From an uncultured archaeon (GTDB lineage Archaea > Nanobdellota > Nanobdellia > Pacearchaeales > GW2011-AR1): a stretch of DNA of 64,000 nucleotides. A model generated the notes under the pieces. The model made no database searches, was not told the DNA's origin, and saw only the letters and a program-made list of their open reading frames with translations. A program made the position numbers and the translations under genes. Below, in pieces: positions 39,178 to 48,049 of this stretch. Numbering within the stretch: the first letter of the stretch is position 1; each line of letters begins with the position of its first letter. The stretch lies in contig CABMGE010000014.1 of the NCBI GenBank assembly GCA_902385625.1, positions 84-64,083 on the forward strand, given 5' to 3'.

Positions 39178-39504
39178 TTATTTCCTTCGTCTGTCACTTA
39201 GATGCATTTTATGCTCAATCTCAGTGTTAAGTTTTTCAATTATCTTACGAATTCCCTTAACTAAATCTCGCTCAGTTACATTTGCCTCAAAAAATTGTTT
39301 TGAAGATTTTGCTTTTTCAAAACAAAAAAGCCTTGCAGATATCTCAAACTCATTTGTCTTTACTTTGCCATATTTTTTAATATTAATTTCAAGACTAGTT
39401 TCTTCCCCAATTTTTCTTTCCAACTTCTCACAGTCCTTGTTTATAAGATTCTCTACCTCTTCGGTTTTATCTTTCTCATCAAGACCTATTATTTTTATAT
39501 TCAT
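39178..39504 (-). CDS. Possible ribosome hibernation factor (HPF/RaiA, S30AE-like)
   Basis: 108 aa. The alternating pattern MNIKIIGLD...VENLINKDCEKLERKIG...LEINIKKYGK...FEISARL...FEANVTERDLVKGIRKIIEKLNTEIEHKMH resembles the beta-alpha-beta-beta-beta-alpha HPF layout. Assigned by pattern only. Confidence 0.35.
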   Translation of the reverse strand: MNIKIIGLDEKDKTEEVENLINKDCEKLERKIGEETSLEINIKKYGKVKTNEFEISARLFCFEKAKSSKQFFEANVTERDLVKGIRKIIEKLNTEIEHKMHLSDRRRK

Positions 39505-39626: not shown

Positions 39627-42600
39627 CTATTTTAAACTATTTTCCCAGTAAGTGCAATCAATTTTGTCGTTTACAGTATTAAATGCCCTTGATTTTGTCT
39701 CGCCGTATATAACTAAACCTGCACTGAAGAAATATCCACCCTCAGAGTTCTGCATAACTCGTGTTACAAATAACTTCAAACCATCATTGCAGGATTTTCC
39801 ATCAAGGCTTTTCATAAATGCCTGATTTTTAGCACTTAAATCAGTTCCAGCATCCAATACTAATTTCCAGTCGGGAGAGGTTAGACTTTTTTGAGATGAA
39901 AAATACCACTTTCCATCGTTTTTATCAAAAGTATAAAATAAATTTGATCCAGATGTACCGTCCTGAAACTCAAAAACAAGAGGTCTTGAGTTTAAATTAG
40001 CAGTATTAGAAGTAGTATCAGTTACAGTTGAAGTTGAACCAGTAAACTCAAAACTTTCACTATCAGAAACACTGCTATAATCAGAACTTACAGGAATAGG
40101 AGGAACTCCTGTTGAAACATTTGAATTAGAAGATACATCAAGACGAGGCAAAAGACTCTCTGCAACTTTCCGATAAAGATTTGCCATTAAATACAATGCT
40201 CTTGCCCGATACACATTATTACTTGCAACCTTTGACAATTTATCAAGATCAGTAACAATAGCACTTGTCTTGCTTTGAATAGTTTCTCTTGTATCTGCCT
40301 TTGAAATTGATAAGGAGTTAATAGCACTCTCTGCACTGTTTGAAACAGTCATACTCATTTCATCAGTCCAGAAATTAGCTTCACCCAAAATACTTAAGTC
40401 AACATTTTGTAAAACAGAATTTTTTATATCTGAATTTTTAATTACATTCTTAACTGAATTTGTATCAAGCCAGCATTTTATTGTAGGATCATCACAATAA
40501 CCAACTTGCTTCCATCGATCATATGAAGAGTTTGTATTATCAACCTGTCCATTTGTAAGAACTTTTTTTCCAGGATTTTCACTTGAACAAACCCTTATTA
40601 TTCCCTGATTATATATTTGAGGATTGTTTGCCTGCTCAGCAGAAACCTGTGCATTCAGATTAAATACACTATTTGTAATTCCAGGTGTTCCTGCAACGCA
40701 CTCGCTTTCTGCAGTTATTCCGGTCTTTAATTGATCTTGCGCATAAGTGTCAGACATGCTATTTAATGCATAAGAAGTTGTTACCTTTCCAAAACCGCAT
40801 TCATCTTTTCCATTTACATTTATGCATAACTGCTTATATCCTGAAGGTGCAATAAAGTCTTTTGCCTCATCAGCTGAAGCTCCAATTGCAATATAACCAT
40901 TTGAAACAAGATAAGTTTGACCTGAAACCTGGTTCATATCGGGAATATCTTTAAGGTAAACATTATAATTTGCTCCATAATCATTTCCAGCATAAATATG
41001 ATAATATACTTTGTAATGGGATGTTGGAGGAATAGTTGCAGTAGTCATAACATCTTCGCTAAACCAGGCAGTATATTGCGGAGGACTGTCAGGTTCTATT
41101 AATCTGTTTAATGCCTGTGATGCAGCCTCAGCAAAACCTGCAGAGCTATTCTGGGTAAATAATCTGCAATAGTCAGTGCCTGCAGAATCAAGCGAACGCA
41201 TATTAAATGCCTGCATGGAATTACTTGCATACTGATTATTAAAATAACTAATAGCACCATTCATATTATCCCATGCGCCCTGAACAGTTGTATATTCTCC
41301 ACCGCCTCTTACTCCCTGCCCATACATAGATTGAAGCATGTTAGGAATTATCTGATTTAAAAAAGGAATAGTCTGTTTCCAGAAAAATTCACAAATATAA
41401 ACACTTTTTATTTCATCACAAATTCCAATATTTCTTCCTGTTTTTAGACTCTCATCCAAACAATCTGCAGTAGAATTTAAAATGCTTATATAACTCTCAA
41501 GCCCTGCATGAACTCCTGTAAGGCATATTGGAATAGCAACTCCTTCCCTCATATTAGGAAGACAAAGTGTTAAGCTTCCAATAATTCCAGATTGAAGTAC
41601 ATTATCCACCTTATATTTTCCTCCAAGATCACATCTTGATGCAGGACAAATAACAGGATCACAAACATTGAATAAAACATTACAATCAGTAGGACTCATA
41701 AAATCAGTACATCTTCCTTCTGATCCTCCAAATGACTTTCCAGAACCAAAAGATCTTCCATTAACATTAACTTTAGTCTTTCCATATTGTTTTGCAGCAT
41801 CAATTATTGCTTGCTGTGCTTTTACAACTAGATTTCTTGCATCAGAAGAACTCATTCCAGGAAAGTTTATTTCAGCACCAGTCATAGTATTGTAATATCT
41901 GCAAATATCATCTCCGCTTTTCTTGAATTCAATAAGCCCATTTGGACCTACATTACAAACATAAAAATTAACAGCTCTTCCAGATTCATCATAAGGAACT
42001 CCAAACCCTCCGATAATATAAGTTAATTCAACATACCATCCACCTTCAACATCAAATGGAACCTCTGAAGGAAGCCCCTTAAAAGGAGCTGTCTCAAAAT
42101 ATTTTACAAGCTGCCCCTCTGAATTTGAAATAGTATTGTGATAAGTTTGTGAATTAGTTTCTTTTATTCTATCAAGTCCAGCAAGACTCATATAATTTCT
42201 AACAGATTCAAGTGATTTCCCAGTTACAGGCTTTCCATCAACAGTATAAATTTTTCCATTATTTTTTGTAGTATAGGTTCCACCTTTTTCAGAATTTACA
42301 ACCTCAACTAAAACTTCTTTTCCGGCAACTTCACTATCAGCTTCAAAAGTCTTTGTACCAAAAATCTTTTTACTTGGAATATAAACTCTTACTACGCTTG
42401 AACCAGCATTGAAATTTTTGTAAAGATCATTGCTAGAATCCCCCTTTCCAATTTTCTTGACATCACCTAAGACAAAATTATCTCCTGCAGGATTAAGGGT
42501 GGAAATTCCAAGGCCATATTGTTTTGTATTTTGTTCAGTCTGAGTCTGCACCTTTTTCAAATCATTGTAATTTTTTGCAGAAAGAATTGTTTGTCCAAGT

Positions 42601-45600
42601 TCTTTATCTGCAACACTAGTAAGAACCGAGCTTCCACCTGCATTTTTCATGTTATAATAAGTCATTATATCTCTTCTCTGTTCCTGAGTCATTCCATCCC
42701 ATGAACAAAGTCCATCTTGTCCATTAATTGAAATTGAAGTTTTTTCCTTATCAGGAAGAGATACACTGCCTTTTGCATCCTTGCAAAAACTATCGAATTT
42801 CTTTTTGAATTCTTCTTCAACTTTTTTTGAATCAACTTGACCTTGGAGGTCTAAAATACTTCCAGACTTTACTCCAACCTGTTTTTCAATATCCTGTATT
42901 ATTTTATTTGTACTCTTTATATTATCTGAATAAATCTTAACATCTTTATCAATATCAGAACTTTTATCCAAAAGACACTGCTGCAAACTTTGGTATTTGT
43001 TTTCACTTACAAGTTTTTCGCAAACTTCATTCCATCCTCCAGCACTGGTCATGATAGTGGTTCTTCCCATTGCACCGCCTTCTGCACCCTCCAAAAGATT
43101 ATTAATAGTAAGTGCAGATGAAGCAGCAAAACAAGCAGCTTTCATTGCTGAAACAACAGTCCCTAATTTTTGATTAATGCTTGTCCACTGTTCTATACTG
43201 GCTCTTAAAGCATCAATCATTGCTTTTGTCTGATCAGGAGTTAATTGAATTGATCTTTTTTCAATTTGAATTTTAAAATCAAAATTAGATTCTGCGCGAG
43301 GTCCAAAATCTTTAGGAAGTATTTCTACTTTTGCCTGTTTGTTTAAATTTATACGAACAATTTTAACATTAGTTCCTTCAAACATTGTCTGGCCATTCAT
43401 ATCCAGTCTTTCTGTTTTTGAAACAGGAGAAGATGGAGCTCCTGAAGAATTTGTGCCTGTCCTGTCATATTTTAAAACCACATAATTTTCTTCTATTCCC
43501 TTAACCTGAATTGTCTTTGTTCCACGATCATCTTTTATTGTTTTTATGTCTTCAAGACCCATTGTTTCTTCTTTACCATCAATTAAAAGTAAAGTACTAA
43601 GGTCTGTTCTTGAAGGCTTTTTTAAATTAAGTAATTCAATATAATAAGGTTCATTATTAATTACAATATTTGTTTTTGAATTAGTCAAATCATACTTCAT
43701 GACCATATCCCTCTCACTCATTATTGATTTTGCAATTCCAGAATCAGGATATTTTTGTACAAGTTTATCATAAAATTCAGTTGATTTTGCATTCATTCCA
43801 AATGCTTTTGACATTTTGGCAGCCTCATATAAACCAACAGCTGCATAAGGGTCTTCAGTTGAAATTCTTCTTTCATTTGGATAGAAATCAACAAGGTCCT
43901 GATAAGTATTTGCAGCCTTGTCATAATATTCCTTGGCAAGAGTTTCAGAACCAGTTATGTCTTCAGAAATCCAATCTTTGTCTTTTGCAAAATAGGCCTC
44001 ATCAAGAGAAATTCCAAAAGCCTGTTTTTTCTCAGCAACTACCTGAACTTCAAGATTTTTATCAACAAGAGAATATAATTGTGAATTTAATTTTTTCCTG
44101 TACTGATCTTGAACTGCTTTTTTTATTAAACTGTCAAGATCATTTATTGTTTTTCCACCTGTTCTTGCAATTTTATCAATCGTATCATAAACTTGCTTAT
44201 CTGCAAATTCAATTTGTGTTGAAGAAAAATCATCCCTTATTAAAACAGCATATTTCCGATTATTGGAATCCTGTCCAAGATAAGCGAGATAAATATTTTT
44301 GTCTGGAGAAATCTTATCTCCAAGAGCAAAATCTTTTAGATTCTCATTAATATTAAAACTAGCTTTTCCAGGATTAAGGCTCAGGTCAATTCTCCCATTT
44401 TTTGCAGGACAACTTAAACTTACCTTTCCTCCACCATTAGAAGTTTGCAGATCAATAACTCTGCACTGATTATTTATTATTCTGTCTCCTTTTGAAACCC
44501 AAATTTGTTCATCATTTACCTGAAGTAATGCACTATCTACAGGAGCACCTATTCTATCAAGCCTGATATTCATTCCAGCAGCACAATAAAATCCATTTAG
44601 ATAAATATCTTTTGAAGTCTCTCCTTCCATCAAAGTTATTGTAGACTGCTTGGTATTTGCATCTCCATAAACCGAAATAGTTGCCCTATCAGATTCAATT
44701 GCATCTGCACGAAGATATGCTTTTCCATTCCAAAATGAATAACCTTTGTAACCTGAGGCCCATTCACCGTCATTAATTTCAGATAAATAAAAATTAGAAT
44801 TTCCAATTCCATATGCCCCAGAACTGTCATATTCCATTACAGCCGTGATATTTCCAGAAATTATATCAGGCATATCTTTCTCAGCAGGAATACTTGATAA
44901 AACAACAACCATATACCCCATATCAGTATTGACAGGAGAACTTGTAAATGCATTATTTATTCCATTATTAGTTTGAAGTGCAGACCGAGCAGGAAAATAA
45001 CTTATTCCAGAAATTCCTTTTGGATATTGACCTTTAAAACTAATGCTTCTAACTTTAGTTACATCAATTAAAGGATTTGCTTTTATTGTCATTACCTTAC
45101 AAAAAACAGGAACATTTTGCTCTTCAAGCAAATCACTTCTAACAATTGCAGGACTGCATCCACCAGGAACTATTTGGAGTATAACATCTTTTCTTTCCAT
45201 ACAATTTTGAGTATTATAATTACTCCAAAGACTACTTGCAGAAAGATATTGACTTCCTCCATAACTTGAAGAAGTAAATTGCGGATTTGATGAAGAACCA
45301 TATAATGTATATCCTGCATAATTACTTGAACCATATGCACTATTATAACCATAAGTGTTATAATTTGTATTTATTCCACTAGATCCATATGCTCCATTAT
45401 AGCCAATACCAGTATTATATCCTGTGTTGTATCCAGTATTATAATTTGAAACATATTGGCCATTTACATAATTTCGATTATAATTTCCATTGTAATAAGA
45501 AGAATAAGGATCATAATTATAGTTATATCCATAAGGGCTAGATCCTGTGTTGTATCCAGTATTATAACCTGTATTGTAACCCATACCAGTATTATATCCA

Positions 45601-45758
45601 CTAGTACCGTAACTACTTCCATAGTTAGTATAACTAGGACCATAATAAGAGCTATCAGTATAAGATAAAACTAAATTTATGCCTAAAATAAAAAGCATAA
45701 ATGTAAATAAGAAAATTCCACTTCTTTTATAATTCCTTTTAATTTTCATTTTATTCAA
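39627..45758 (-). CDS. Giant (2043 aa) secreted protein of unknown family
   Basis: N-terminal hydrophobic signal (KRSGIFLFTFMLFILGINLVLS), ~150-aa Tyr/Asn/Gly-rich low-complexity region, one TPR-like stretch (EYYDKAANTYQDLVDFYP...FYDKLVQKYPDSGIAKS) and a Cys-rich region near the C-terminal third. No C-terminal TM. Confidence 0.8.
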   Translation of the reverse strand: MNKMKIKRNYKRSGIFLFTFMLFILGINLVLSYTDSSYYGPSYTNYGSSYGTSGYNTGMGYNTGYNTGYNTGSSPYGYNYNYDPYSSYYNGNYNRNYVNGQYVSNYNTGYNTGYNTGIGYNGAYGSSGINTNYNTYGYNSAYGSSNYAGYTLYGSSSNPQFTSSSYGGSQYLSASSLWSNYNTQNCMERKDVILQIVPGGCSPAIVRSDLLEEQNVPVFCKVMTIKANPLIDVTKVRSISFKGQYPKGISGISYFPARSALQTNNGINNAFTSSPVNTDMGYMVVVLSSIPAEKDMPDIISGNITAVMEYDSSGAYGIGNSNFYLSEINDGEWASGYKGYSFWNGKAYLRADAIESDRATISVYGDANTKQSTITLMEGETSKDIYLNGFYCAAGMNIRLDRIGAPVDSALLQVNDEQIWVSKGDRIINNQCRVIDLQTSNGGGKVSLSCPAKNGRIDLSLNPGKASFNINENLKDFALGDKISPDKNIYLAYLGQDSNNRKYAVLIRDDFSSTQIEFADKQVYDTIDKIARTGGKTINDLDSLIKKAVQDQYRKKLNSQLYSLVDKNLEVQVVAEKKQAFGISLDEAYFAKDKDWISEDITGSETLAKEYYDKAANTYQDLVDFYPNERRISTEDPYAAVGLYEAAKMSKAFGMNAKSTEFYDKLVQKYPDSGIAKSIMSERDMVMKYDLTNSKTNIVINNEPYYIELLNLKKPSRTDLSTLLLIDGKEETMGLEDIKTIKDDRGTKTIQVKGIEENYVVLKYDRTGTNSSGAPSSPVSKTERLDMNGQTMFEGTNVKIVRINLNKQAKVEILPKDFGPRAESNFDFKIQIEKRSIQLTPDQTKAMIDALRASIEQWTSINQKLGTVVSAMKAACFAASSALTINNLLEGAEGGAMGRTTIMTSAGGWNEVCEKLVSENKYQSLQQCLLDKSSDIDKDVKIYSDNIKSTNKIIQDIEKQVGVKSGSILDLQGQVDSKKVEEEFKKKFDSFCKDAKGSVSLPDKEKTSISINGQDGLCSWDGMTQEQRRDIMTYYNMKNAGGSSVLTSVADKELGQTILSAKNYNDLKKVQTQTEQNTKQYGLGISTLNPAGDNFVLGDVKKIGKGDSSNDLYKNFNAGSSVVRVYIPSKKIFGTKTFEADSEVAGKEVLVEVVNSEKGGTYTTKNNGKIYTVDGKPVTGKSLESVRNYMSLAGLDRIKETNSQTYHNTISNSEGQLVKYFETAPFKGLPSEVPFDVEGGWYVELTYIIGGFGVPYDESGRAVNFYVCNVGPNGLIEFKKSGDDICRYYNTMTGAEINFPGMSSSDARNLVVKAQQAIIDAAKQYGKTKVNVNGRSFGSGKSFGGSEGRCTDFMSPTDCNVLFNVCDPVICPASRCDLGGKYKVDNVLQSGIIGSLTLCLPNMREGVAIPICLTGVHAGLESYISILNSTADCLDESLKTGRNIGICDEIKSVYICEFFWKQTIPFLNQIIPNMLQSMYGQGVRGGGEYTTVQGAWDNMNGAISYFNNQYASNSMQAFNMRSLDSAGTDYCRLFTQNSSAGFAEAASQALNRLIEPDSPPQYTAWFSEDVMTTATIPPTSHYKVYYHIYAGNDYGANYNVYLKDIPDMNQVSGQTYLVSNGYIAIGASADEAKDFIAPSGYKQLCINVNGKDECGFGKVTTSYALNSMSDTYAQDQLKTGITAESECVAGTPGITNSVFNLNAQVSAEQANNPQIYNQGIIRVCSSENPGKKVLTNGQVDNTNSSYDRWKQVGYCDDPTIKCWLDTNSVKNVIKNSDIKNSVLQNVDLSILGEANFWTDEMSMTVSNSAESAINSLSISKADTRETIQSKTSAIVTDLDKLSKVASNNVYRARALYLMANLYRKVAESLLPRLDVSSNSNVSTGVPPIPVSSDYSSVSDSESFEFTGSTSTVTDTTSNTANLNSRPLVFEFQDGTSGSNLFYTFDKNDGKWYFSSQKSLTSPDWKLVLDAGTDLSAKNQAFMKSLDGKSCNDGLKLFVTRVMQNSEGGYFFSAGLVIYGETKSRAFNTVNDKIDCTYWENSLK
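45200..45665 (-). repeat. Low-complexity coding repeats (YNTG / GYN / SSY units)
   Basis: Protein SYYGPSYTNYGSSYGTSGYNTGMGYNTGYNTGYNTGSSPYGYNYNYDPYSSYYNGNYNRNY...GYNTGYNTGIGYNGAYGSSGINTNYNTYGYNSAYGSSNYAGY. Confidence 0.85.
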
Positions 45759-47622
45759 ATTTTATATTAAGTCCACTTGTCTCAATTTTATTATAATTTA
45801 TCTGTAGATCCTCGATTTTTGCAGGCCTTCCAAATTTCTCAGGACTAATTATTATACTCTTTGCACCTTGAAGTTCAGATTCAGCAATATAATACTTTTC
45901 TTTTCCTCCGCCTGAAACAGCAGAACTAATCACCTGATCAGGAACAGTCATATCAAAACATTTTCTTTCGGTAGCACCAAAAATTCCAGAGATACCTGAA
46001 CTAGGAGCATCAACACATTTTTGAGTTGTACTTCCCTTTAAATTAAAATTTGTATTTGAATAGATATAAGCTTTTATTTCATACTGGCCTTCAGTTAATT
46101 CAATTTGTTTTTGATCTGGATAAGAAACACTTATAGAGTCAGTTCCATTTTCTTTCATAAAATTAATAATTGCACGATCATCACTAGAAAGTCCTTCAAC
46201 TGAAAGAGCGAGTTTATATTTTTTGTCAAGAATAATCTGAACAACTCCAGGATTTATGCTTGAAACAATTTGTTTTTTTGCAGTGTAACCCTGGGCAGTT
46301 GCAATTATAAATCCATTTGAACATTGTGGGAATGGAGCAGTTAAACTTGCTTCTCCACTTTTAATCAAGGTTTTTCCAATTCCACAAGAAGTATCAAAAC
46401 ACTTAAAATTAATATTTGCTTCAACAGGATTTAGATTACTATTAAAAGTATAAACAGTCATATTAGTGAGTTTATATTTACAAAGTTCAGGAACAACATC
46501 AATAAGTCCCTGGCCACTGGTATAATTTCTCGGCTGATTTTGGTGAATAAAAACCACCATAGGAAACTGAAATATTTCATCATTATAATATAATTGAACT
46601 AAAACAGGATACCCGAGATCATAAACAAAATGATAAGTAGTATAGCAAAAACCAAGCATCCCCATTCCCTCTTGCATCCCAACAGGATCAGCCTTTAAAA
46701 ATCCAGAATCCGATGGACTAATCTCCATTTTTGTAGGCCAAACTCTTGAATAAAGGAAATTCACATTTGCACTAACCTTTTCTCCAACATCCTGCACAAA
46801 ATATTTATTTTCCTCTTTTGAGAGTTTATAATAAGTTCCCTTAAGTTTTATTGCACCAGTATTTGCTTCAAGAGCATTCATCAAATTCTCTCTTACCTCA
46901 TCAACACTCCAAATTTTAGGACTGCAAGAAATCTCAGTTCCGTCAACAGGAGCATAAAGTCTCAGTGCATCAATTCCATAATTCTCTAAAAAAGAACTTT
47001 GTTTTTCATGATTATAAATCTTCAATGCAAGATTATAGAATTTTCCAAGATTAGAATTTACATCTCGCGTGTGAGTTTTAGCAGTCCAGGTAGTATTACC
47101 AAAAACAATTTCAATATCCTGTTTTACATTAACTCCAATAGAATTATCATTTACAATACTGTCTACTTCTTTTACATCACCGAGATTTACAACAAATCCT
47201 TGCTGTATAAATCTATCAAAATTGCAACTATTGATGTTTTTTTTAATATAATCATTTAATTGAACTTGCATTCTTTCTTTAGTTGGAACTTGCTCTTTTA
47301 TAACTCCATTTCCAGAAATATAATACCAATAAGGTATTCCCATTCCAAGAAAATTTAACTGTGATGAAAAAGGCATATACTCACTTCCAGGAGAGAAATT
47401 AGGGTTCTCAATATATCCTCCAGTTTGGCCTAAAATCAAAGCCCCTTCTTTTGCAGTATTATCCATGCAGTTTAAATAATAAGAATAAACAGGTTCAATA
47501 TCTCTCGGAATACTCGAGCTATTATTTCCCCTAAGTACAAAATAGGCTATAAGCCCAACAATAATTACAATCGCAATTATAATAAAAATAGTTACCTGTG
47601 ACTTTTTATGCAATCCCCTCAT
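45751..47622 (-). CDS. Membrane-anchored protein of unknown family, possibly with a class III (pilin-like) signal peptide
   Basis: The track ORF starts at a GTG (47691). I prefer the ATG at 47622, which is preceded by GAGGAG. N-terminus MRGLHKKSQVTIFIIIAIVIIVGLIAYFVL. Its stop overlaps the start of the 2043-aa gene by 8 nt. Confidence 0.7.
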   Translation of the reverse strand: MRGLHKKSQVTIFIIIAIVIIVGLIAYFVLRGNNSSSIPRDIEPVYSYYLNCMDNTAKEGALILGQTGGYIENPNFSPGSEYMPFSSQLNFLGMGIPYWYYISGNGVIKEQVPTKERMQVQLNDYIKKNINSCNFDRFIQQGFVVNLGDVKEVDSIVNDNSIGVNVKQDIEIVFGNTTWTAKTHTRDVNSNLGKFYNLALKIYNHEKQSSFLENYGIDALRLYAPVDGTEISCSPKIWSVDEVRENLMNALEANTGAIKLKGTYYKLSKEENKYFVQDVGEKVSANVNFLYSRVWPTKMEISPSDSGFLKADPVGMQEGMGMLGFCYTTYHFVYDLGYPVLVQLYYNDEIFQFPMVVFIHQNQPRNYTSGQGLIDVVPELCKYKLTNMTVYTFNSNLNPVEANINFKCFDTSCGIGKTLIKSGEASLTAPFPQCSNGFIIATAQGYTAKKQIVSSINPGVVQIILDKKYKLALSVEGLSSDDRAIINFMKENGTDSISVSYPDQKQIELTEGQYEIKAYIYSNTNFNLKGSTTQKCVDAPSSGISGIFGATERKCFDMTVPDQVISSAVSGGGKEKYYIAESELQGAKSIIISPEKFGRPAKIEDLQINYNKIETSGLNIKFE

Positions 47623-47809
47623 TTTTTCTCCTCTTTTACCTATCACTAAAATAATAAAACACCATATATAAAGATTATCAAACAAGAACACAAGTCAGGA
47701 TATTTTCCCTAAAATTGCATATCCTACCAATTCAAGTATTTCCCTAAGTTTATGTATAGAATTAATACTTAGAGTAGGAGGAATACTTGAGATCCCCATT
47801 AGAAAAATA

Positions 47810-47880
47810 TGGACCCACCAAGGATTGAACTTGGGATCTATCCACGTCAAGGATATGGTTTGCCACTAGCCTATGGGTCC
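47810..47880 (-). tRNA. tRNA-Val (GAC)
   Basis: Reverse complement folds as: acceptor GGACCCA/TGGGTCC, anticodon stem TATCC/GGATA, loop TTGACGT, T arm CCAAG-TTCAATC-CTTGG, discriminator A. The D stem has one C:A mismatch. Confidence 0.85.
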
Positions 47881-48016
47881 ATTTATTCACAAACTTTGTT
47901 TGTGAATCTAACCCAGAGGTTACGTTTGCAGTTTGTTTGCCACTATGTAAAACTCCTTTTAAAAAGGAGTTTAACAGACAGAGATTTTAGATAAAATCTC
48001 TGTAGCCTATGGGTCC
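47881..48016 (-). repeat. 136-nt leader containing duplicated fragments of the tRNA-Val 5' end, interrupted by four hairpins
   Basis: 48016-48003 equals tRNA nt 1-14, and 47945-47935 equals tRNA nt 13-23. Hairpins lie at 47979-48002, 47950-47972, 47909-47922 and 47885-47907. Confidence 0.85.
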
Positions 48017-48042
48017 AATATAAAACTACACTTCTTAAGTCA

Positions 48043-48049
48043 ATTTAAA
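48043..48049 (-). promoter_or_regulatory. TATA-like TTTAAAT (minus strand) ~30 nt upstream of the duplicated tRNA-Val 5' fragment
   Basis: No comparable A/T box lies ~30 nt upstream of the intact tRNA 5' end at 47880. Confidence 0.4.

Follow-up and report, generated by a model that had tools for sequence, protein, structure and literature searches.

The window analysed here, a 64,000-nucleotide (nt) stretch of contig CABMGE010000014.1 (positions 84 to 64,083, forward strand; assembly GCA_902385625.1), derives from a DPANN archaeal bin of the order Pacearchaeales (1.34 Mb in 27 contigs, 88% complete, ~31% G+C). Its minus strand carries two adjacent genes, encoding a membrane protein of 623 amino acids (aa) with a pilin-like signal (hereafter the small protein) and a secreted protein of 2,040 aa (the giant), whose features are collected in Table 1. 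A preliminary description of the locus, made from the nucleotide sequence, had reported two open reading frames, and both are present as it gave them: 45751..47691(-), 646 aa from a GTG, and 39627..45758(-), 2043 aa from a TTG. For the upstream gene it had preferred the ATG at 47622, behind a GAGGAG box, and this start is borne out by the position of the TATA box, by the database copy of the protein and by all homologs, which begin at the same point; the 646-aa form is ruled out because the TATA box (47672-47665) lies downstream of GTG 47691. The likeliest start of the giant is ATG 45749, one base past the upstream TAA, rather than TTG 45758, and the 8-nt overlap originally described therefore holds for the mechanical TTG start only and is lost with the likelier ATG, while the tight coupling of the two genes stands either way. 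Among relatives the modal junction of the pair is a 4-nt ATGA overlap. Together, these features define an operon with its own TATA box and ribosome-binding site, whose genes are predicted to be translationally coupled. The transcription unit is taken to comprise two genes because the next gene downstream of the giant (108 aa, 39178-39504 (-)) has a TATA-like box of its own.

Table 1. Features of the two-gene operon, in the direction of transcription.
Feature	Position in window	Strand	Basis or remark
Archaeal TATA box TTTATATA	47665..47672	(-)	42 nt upstream of small-gene ATG; read directly from sequence
GAGGAG ribosome-binding box	47628..47633	(-)	Precedes ATG 47622
Small gene, 623-aa pilin-signal ("QVT") membrane protein	45751..47622	(-)	1,988 homologs and alignment
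Leader MRGLHKKS, basic, with small last residue; putative class III cleavage site S8|Q9	47599..47622	(-)	Ortholog alignment
Gln and 21-residue uncharged helix QVTIFIIIAIVIIVGLIAYFVL	47533..47598	(-)	Gln invariant in orthologs and paralogs
Family-defining alpha/beta N-domain, residues ~36-215, common to the short paralogs	46978..47517	(-)	Invariant C, GG, P, P, C
Three C-terminal beta-sandwich domains, residues ~383-623	45754..46476	(-)	AlphaFold2 model, pLDDT mostly 75-90 there
Junction TAAaATG: small-gene stop, one base, giant start	45747..45753	(-)	Read from sequence
Giant gene, 2,040-aa secreted protein	39627..45749	(-)	656 homologs; single-copy
Sec-type signal peptide, residues 1-29, ...NLVLS|YT	45663..45749	(-)	Relatives end in AXA-like sites, e.g. 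V-x-A|Q
Tyr/Asn/Gly/Ser low-complexity spacer, residues ~30-160	45270..45662	(-)	Alignment occupancy ~0.22-0.25 at residues 41-120
Conserved N-terminal domain with 6 invariant Cys, residues 161-520	44190..45269	(-)	Alignment
TPR-like helical stretch, residues ~600-680	43710..43952	(-)	Weak: TPR_6 E 0.36, YbgF model E 0.007
Helical bundle and beta domains, residues 800-1200	42150..43352	(-)	AlphaFold2 pLDDT mostly ~70-85; first ~40 residues <50
Most conserved Cys-rich core, residues 1200-1770, 19 invariant Cys	40440..42152	(-)	Alignment
Variable C-terminal tail, residues 1881-2040, with one copy of a ~110-aa module "F.FQDG...W.YS"	39630..40109	(-)	Alignment

A word-indexed search recovered homologs of the small protein, the best 120 of which (among 1,988) are 54-77% identical to it, 614-676 aa long and drawn exclusively from Pacearchaeota, Woesearchaeota or Nanoarchaeota bins. 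Those listed among the homologs of the giant are 39-73% identical and mostly 1,800-2,400 aa in length. Between genera, sequence identity of the pair is ~50-60%, and both proteins can still be aligned across families. A synteny scan using one genome per species identified 386 genomes with a relative, from which 80 loci were kept; in 71/71 loci with sufficient downstream DNA the giant directly follows the small gene, and the two genes are still adjacent in five more distant families in which the small protein is 29-32% identical. The preliminary description had named a lack of synteny elsewhere as a ground for refutation; the pair is syntenic in all of these loci. Also conserved is a neighbourhood of NDK, S3Ae, the pair, TFIIB, S8e and LSM, which relatives at 57-58% identity retain in the same order; genes for TFIIB, S3Ae and NDK are likewise present within the window.

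The core of the giant was detected, as a single copy, in 65/301 sampled genomes of the phylum, and is restricted to families possessing a full-length small-protein ortholog (f1, 12/13; f2, 1/1; f23, 10/10; f24, 9/9; f25, 13/14). In other families of the class, a protein of 604-680 aa that shares this N-terminus is encoded ahead of a secreted protein of 1,520-1,926 aa, and in a search with a profile of the giant the large proteins of these analogous pairs showed no detectable relation to that of the window. We conclude that the operon is vertically inherited in Pacearchaeota/Woesearchaeota-type (GTDB Nanoarchaeota) archaea. An origin in a mobile element was rejected, given the uniform composition and conserved neighbourhood. 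Two of the 80 kept loci are labelled bacterial (L039, JAFCCB010000019.1, Dojkabacteria, operon at 58% identity; L089, DATKUW010000047.1, Bacillota, operon at 44% identity), and most likely represent mis-binned contigs.

The N-terminus of the small protein had been read as a class III (type IV pilin-like) signal, and position-by-position conservation strengthens this reading. The signals compared came from 119 orthologs and from 113 proteins belonging to the short-paralog family described below, with the motif located by its Gln. At -1 only A, G or S occurs (119/119 orthologs and 113/113 paralogs; 232/232 together), and basic residues precede this position, with K or R at -2 in 97/119 orthologs (~80% overall) and mostly also at -3. 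Following the putative site, +1 is always Gln, as expected of the residue by which the motif was located, +3 is T or S, and an uncharged stretch with a median of 21 residues begins at +1. The length of the leader varies freely, from 6 to 60 residues in orthologs and from 4 to 60 when paralogs are included. Since -1 is restricted, the Gln invariant and leader length free, we interpret this signature as a processing site before a hydrophobic helix. The short basic leader whose last residue is small, and the uncharged helix of ~20 residues with Gln at +1, are those of class III signals, and EppA-type pilin signals are described as having a short leader with Gly at its end, followed by a conserved Gln at +1 (PMC3875500). 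The Glu that characterizes class III signals at +5 is replaced by Phe in 115/119 orthologs and 113/113 paralogs; because pilins of Sulfolobus and Haloferax also lack +5 Glu, which is dispensable there (PMC3875500), Phe at this position is compatible with class III membership. As judged from the alignment, the small protein begins with an N-terminus that shows all the sequence properties of a class III signal of archaea with a +1 Gln, and would be expected to undergo cleavage.

A whole-genome scan for this N-terminal motif revealed nine further proteins of 246-350 aa with a near-identical helix (QVTIFIILAI...), all of which share the first extracellular domain with its invariant C, GG, P, P and C. 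Helix identity among the paralogs is 53%, versus 25% for the remainder of the protein, and with the helix removed three of them match the small protein of the window at E values of 1e-6 to 5e-10. Searched against 1.84 billion proteins, a profile of the N-domain retrieved 9,270 cluster representatives at a threshold of E <= 1e-3 and 7,067 when this was tightened to E <= 1e-10; where related proteins have Pfam records, no family is precomputed for them, and every source name given there points to a Pacearchaeota or Nanoarchaeota bin. The N-terminus and first domain of the small protein define a large undescribed family. Conservation in the shared N-domain is confined to the C, GG, P, P and C residues, and because no polar catalytic residues are kept, the domain is suggested to be an adaptor rather than an enzyme.

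Members of the small-gene family nearly always sit directly upstream of genes for large secreted proteins. Downstream of each of the nine paralog genes, on the same strand and at a distance of at most 109 nt, come one or two genes encoding Sec-signal proteins of 505-1,229 aa (C15:1-14000, C20:2300-12800, C27:21900-30900, C7:3800-7600 and C13:2390-4820; loci L104-L108), with the cassettes arranged in arrays on contigs C15, C20 and C27. From a crude rate, 4.2% of open reading frames being large and signal-bearing, the chance of such an arrangement in 10/10 cassettes is ~2e-14. The partners of the paralogs show no homology to the giant and are mostly unrelated to each other, and the majority possess no Pfam domain. 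One partner of 748 aa (L106:3971-6217 (-), corresponding to C27:21970-24216) has a trypsin-like peptidase domain at its C-terminal end (PF13365, E 3.4e-11); the same arrangement with a trypsin-like domain occurs in relatives (L111), and equivalent cassettes, including those with trypsin-domain partners, are present in other genomes.

Structural modelling of the small protein with AlphaFold2 (mean predicted local distance difference test score, pLDDT, of 74.6) placed a transmembrane helix at residues 6-31, a partly uncertain alpha/beta region at 40-360 and three beta-sandwiches at ~383-623. Foldseek comparison of this model to the PDB returned only generic chains of multiple immunoglobulin-like (Ig) domains, with TM-scores of ~0.12, and a carboxypeptidase regulatory-type domain; the generic matches include the B. 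anthracis TIE protein, PitA, SlaB (8qox_B) and the leptin receptor.

For the giant, the signal peptide, low-complexity head and Cys-rich region originally recognised were all found again in the sequence and alignments. Among its relatives the head is 27-175 residues long and enriched in S, G, T, N or Y, and both this head and the last ~160 residues are variable; the conserved portion extends over residues 160-1880, peaking at 1200-1770. The protein contains 32 Cys, of which the 19 invariant ones of the core fall between residues 1265 and 1759, and these cysteines are presumably disulfide-bonded. The TPR-like stretch of the preliminary description fared less well, the TPR_6 and YbgF matches both lying far under their cut-offs: the TPR_6 match scores 12 bits against a cut-off of 26.3 (E 0.36) and spans at most ~80/2,040 residues. 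A few relatives of the giant carry a precomputed PF13174 match. No significant match to a TPR family supports the name of TPR repeat protein, under which the giant appears in some sources. An AlphaFold2 model of residues 800-1880 has a mean pLDDT of 61.6, falling below 50 at residues ~1360-1560, in the centre of the core, and at ~1655-1720, and this model yielded no fold match at E <= 1e-3 against PDB or viral models. The only enzyme family precomputed among 120 listed relatives of the giant is PF00413, in one protein. With regard to the variable tails, no Pfam domain was detected in 5/7 of the longest relatives, and the tail of the window protein gave only a below-cut-off match to Peptidase_S6. 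The tail module (F.FQDG...Y.Y...W.YS...G..L), of ~110 aa and without a Pfam match, was seen in up to ~2 copies (window, P0168, P0195 and P0220).

In agreement with the preliminary description, which had called the two-gene unit one of unknown function, had recognised no family for ~1,700 residues of the giant and had named profile searches as the means of overturning that view, neither protein could be assigned to a well-known family. Searches of Pfam and NCBIfam gave nothing above cut-off for the small protein or the giant, and sequence searches of the PDB, using single sequences and profiles of 37-40 homologs, gave no match to either. Apart from generic beta-sandwiches, no solved or viral fold was matched by either protein.

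The preliminary description had also pointed to a prepilin peptidase and a type IV pilus ATPase as the genes to look for in this genome, and both were identified. An intact A24 prepilin peptidase with a GGDAKL motif is encoded at C24:17172-17507 (PF01478, 38.8 bits, above cut-off), and the enzyme was found in 40/41 genomes of the order. The genome also encodes several T2SSE-type ATPases, with type IV filament ATPase and platform genes located on contigs C10, C18 and C24. These include a complete, canonical type IV pilus locus (C10:110077-118057), where five genes for small pilin-like proteins are accompanied by one ATPase gene, the genes of two platform proteins and a further two pilin-like genes; its small pilins have the sites KRG|Q, FKG|Q, KKA|Q and KKA|V. 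A second cluster of pilin-like genes adjoins the A24 peptidase (C24:16695-21940).

We propose that the small protein is a pilin-type anchor or docking subunit that may hold the co-translated giant on the cell surface, a reading to which we give about an even chance of being correct. Under this proposal the A24 peptidase of the genome would cut the small protein between S8 and Q9, and the retained hydrophobic helix would keep it in the membrane or, alternatively, join a type IV filament-like assembly with the paralogs. Its ectodomain would then dock the giant, which would otherwise have no anchor after cutting of its signal peptide, such that the giant would stay on the cell and not be lost by diffusion. 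The 623 + 2,040 pair would represent the universal module of a display system. Since the pair is highly conserved, single-copy and situated in a housekeeping neighbourhood, these findings suggest a core envelope or cell-contact structure, and not a variable host-specific adhesin.

The closest known precedents for such an anchor are the class III substrates of PibD and EppA, including the sugar-binding proteins of the Sulfolobus bindosome, which like the small protein combine a basic leader, a small residue, a +1 Gln and a helix of ~20 residues, and whose processing systems likewise involve an A24 peptidase of the kind encoded in this genome. PibD is able to process large non-pilin proteins bearing class III signals (PMC4858521), and the bindosome proteins are, like the small protein, far larger than structural pilins (PMC3875500, PMC4858521). 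In contrast to the known class III families, the small protein has no match to a pilin or class III profile, carries Phe at +5 and lacks a solute-binding domain; its globular part consists instead of a new alpha/beta domain and beta-sandwiches, and members of its family are each coupled to the gene of a secreted partner.

Several observations weigh against an anchor of this type. Within the window protein itself, the Ser at -1 is less usual than Gly or Ala, and +5 is Phe. No type IV pilin appears among the Foldseek matches of the small protein to the PDB, and its globular domain has no recognisable pilin fold. Neither a type IV filament ATPase nor a platform gene lies near the operon, in this genome or in the loci of relatives examined. 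A comparison of the cassette partners revealed no docking motif common to them, and the low confidence of the AlphaFold2 model coincides exactly with the most conserved core of the giant. Finally, we infer cleavage, membrane retention and binding of the small protein to the giant from sequence.

The pair might alternatively constitute the two-component S-layer of this lineage, with the giant forming the canopy of the lattice and the 623-aa protein serving as its membrane stalk in the manner of SlaA and SlaB. We consider this rather improbable. Like the pair, SlaA and SlaB of the Sulfolobales (PDB 8qox) are an operon-encoded combination of a very large exported protein and a smaller membrane-anchored beta-sandwich protein, and the near-universal, single-copy and co-transcribed nature of the present genes would suit such a role. 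Furthermore, a genome-wide search detected no known S-layer family or PGF-CTERM motif, and DPANN archaea are without any determined S-layer protein (bioRxiv 10.1101/2023.10.27.564410). Foldseek does list SlaB (8qox_B, E 5.5e-6), but with a TM-score of 0.12 and amid generic multi-Ig matches, and no sequence or profile homology of the pair to SlaA or SlaB was found. The architectures also differ: the anchoring helix of SlaB is C-terminal and follows a coiled coil, whereas the sole transmembrane helix of the small protein is N-terminal and pilin-like, without a coiled-coil stalk, and the giant is a mixed helical/beta protein with a Cys-rich core as opposed to an Ig-domain chain. Moreover, slaA precedes slaB, while here the anchor gene lies upstream of the large gene, so that the order appears opposite. 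Relative to SlaA/SlaB the pair is far more conserved and bears few N-glycosylation sequons, with 7 in the small protein and 6 in the giant's 2,040 residues; S-layer proteins are usually unrecognisable above the genus level (bioRxiv 10.1101/2023.10.27.564410), as opposed to ~55-60% identity of the pair between genera. The nine paralogous cassettes would also be unexpected for an S-layer.

Codon usage gives a further, weak indication against the S-layer. C-ending two-fold codons make up 0.25-0.40 in genes for ribosomal proteins, NDK and TFB versus a genome median of 0.167, which suggests translational selection and allows this share to be used as a proxy for expression. By this proxy the two genes rank as average, in the 14th and 31st percentiles, compared with the 91st-100th for ribosomal proteins, although the test is a weak one given that the thermosome reaches only the 64th.

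A second alternative, to which we assign a similarly small probability, is that a type IV pilus incorporates the 623-aa protein at its tip as a modular minor pilin, with the giant as the tip adhesin, comparable to bacterial minor pilin/PilY1 complexes or archaeal DUF2341 adhesins. Both modular pilins and tip adhesins are well documented for type IV pili (PMC8179133, PMC4858521), and in systems such as Streptococcus sanguinis PilB, PilY1 tip complexes and DUF2341 adhesins a pilin-type N-terminus is, as here, fused to or associated with a large module. The class III-type site, a helix conserved among paralogs far beyond the need of a plain anchor, and the presence of the peptidase, ATPases, platform proteins and small pilins in the genome would all accommodate this reading. 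Conversely, the pair is unlinked to pilus biogenesis genes, the ATPase and platform genes never lying beside it in the loci examined, and the helix of the small protein is unlike those of the canonical pilins of the C10 locus. The Pfam search gave no PilY1 or DUF2341 match, the pair has no vWA or lectin domain, and it would be unusual for a single pilus to draw on ten different bulky "pilins" per genome that are each paired with a separate partner (~10 units per genome).

Also quite unlikely, in our estimation, is a third alternative in which the N-terminus is an uncleaved signal-anchor and the small proteins act as private membrane-bound chaperones or foldases for the neighbouring exoprotein, remaining outside the final structure. 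The Lif/LipB foldase of Pseudomonas lipase is similarly an N-terminally anchored protein encoded beside its secreted client, and the one-to-one pairing of family members with downstream secreted proteins of unrelated sequence, some with peptidase domains, the tight gene coupling suited to a dedicated helper, and the absence of conserved catalytic residues from the N-domain are in keeping with it; against this, there is no homology to Lif/LipB, the restricted -1 residue, invariant Gln and free leader length indicate a processing site, a near-invariant transmembrane helix would be needless for unrelated clients, and the three extra beta-sandwich domains of the 623-aa member, typical of structural surface proteins, argue together with that processing-site signature for a lasting surface component.

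Returning to the anchor proposal, the genome-wide set of anchors with secreted partners probably functions in building the cell surface, with the 623 + 2,040 operon as its flagship. The pilin-type anchor family (at least 9,000 sequence clusters) lies upstream of secreted-protein genes in every cassette examined, a pattern that suggests a general means of holding large exoproteins, proteases included, at the cell surface. A bolder and on balance unlikely extension is that these "QVT" proteins form an undescribed archaeal surface-display system, in which ~10 pilin-type subunits per genome, sharing one near-invariant helix, would co-assemble, possibly by type IV filament machinery, and each present its own giant exoprotein; the 623 + 2,040 pair would then be the core of a host-contact or envelope organelle of Pacearchaeota and Woesearchaeota. 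These groups are among the most widespread uncultured archaea, and we know of nothing established about their envelope or cell contact. The operon, in turn, takes up 8 kb of a ~1.3-Mb genome, as a single copy beside ribosomal and transcription genes, and falls outside every described family or fold. Its proteins offer concrete targets for antibodies, cryo-electron tomography labelling, metaproteomics and cleavage assays in a lineage which has so far had none.

Several minor features flank the operon. Downstream, the 108-aa reading frame at 39178-39504 (-) resembles the ribosome hibernation factor family PF02482 at a level below the cut-off (E 2.8e-4), and a related locus (L011) carries a 112-aa reading frame in the equivalent position. 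Upstream, in the region 47809-48049 (-) of the window, a gene for tRNA-Val(GAC) lies 186 nt from the operon; a sequence from the 5' end of this tRNA, GGACCCATAGGCTA, recurs ~135 nt beyond it on the upstream side, and hairpins separate the two copies. No small RHH regulator gene is present upstream of the operon, either here or in its close relatives. The 34-aa reading frame (MGISSIPPTLSINSIHKLREILELVGYAILGKIS) at 47695-47799 (-), between the tRNA and the operon, is unconserved in relatives and is probably no gene. In some distant lineages (e.g. L018), a 63-aa reading frame resembling a helix-turn-helix protein overlaps the start of the small gene.

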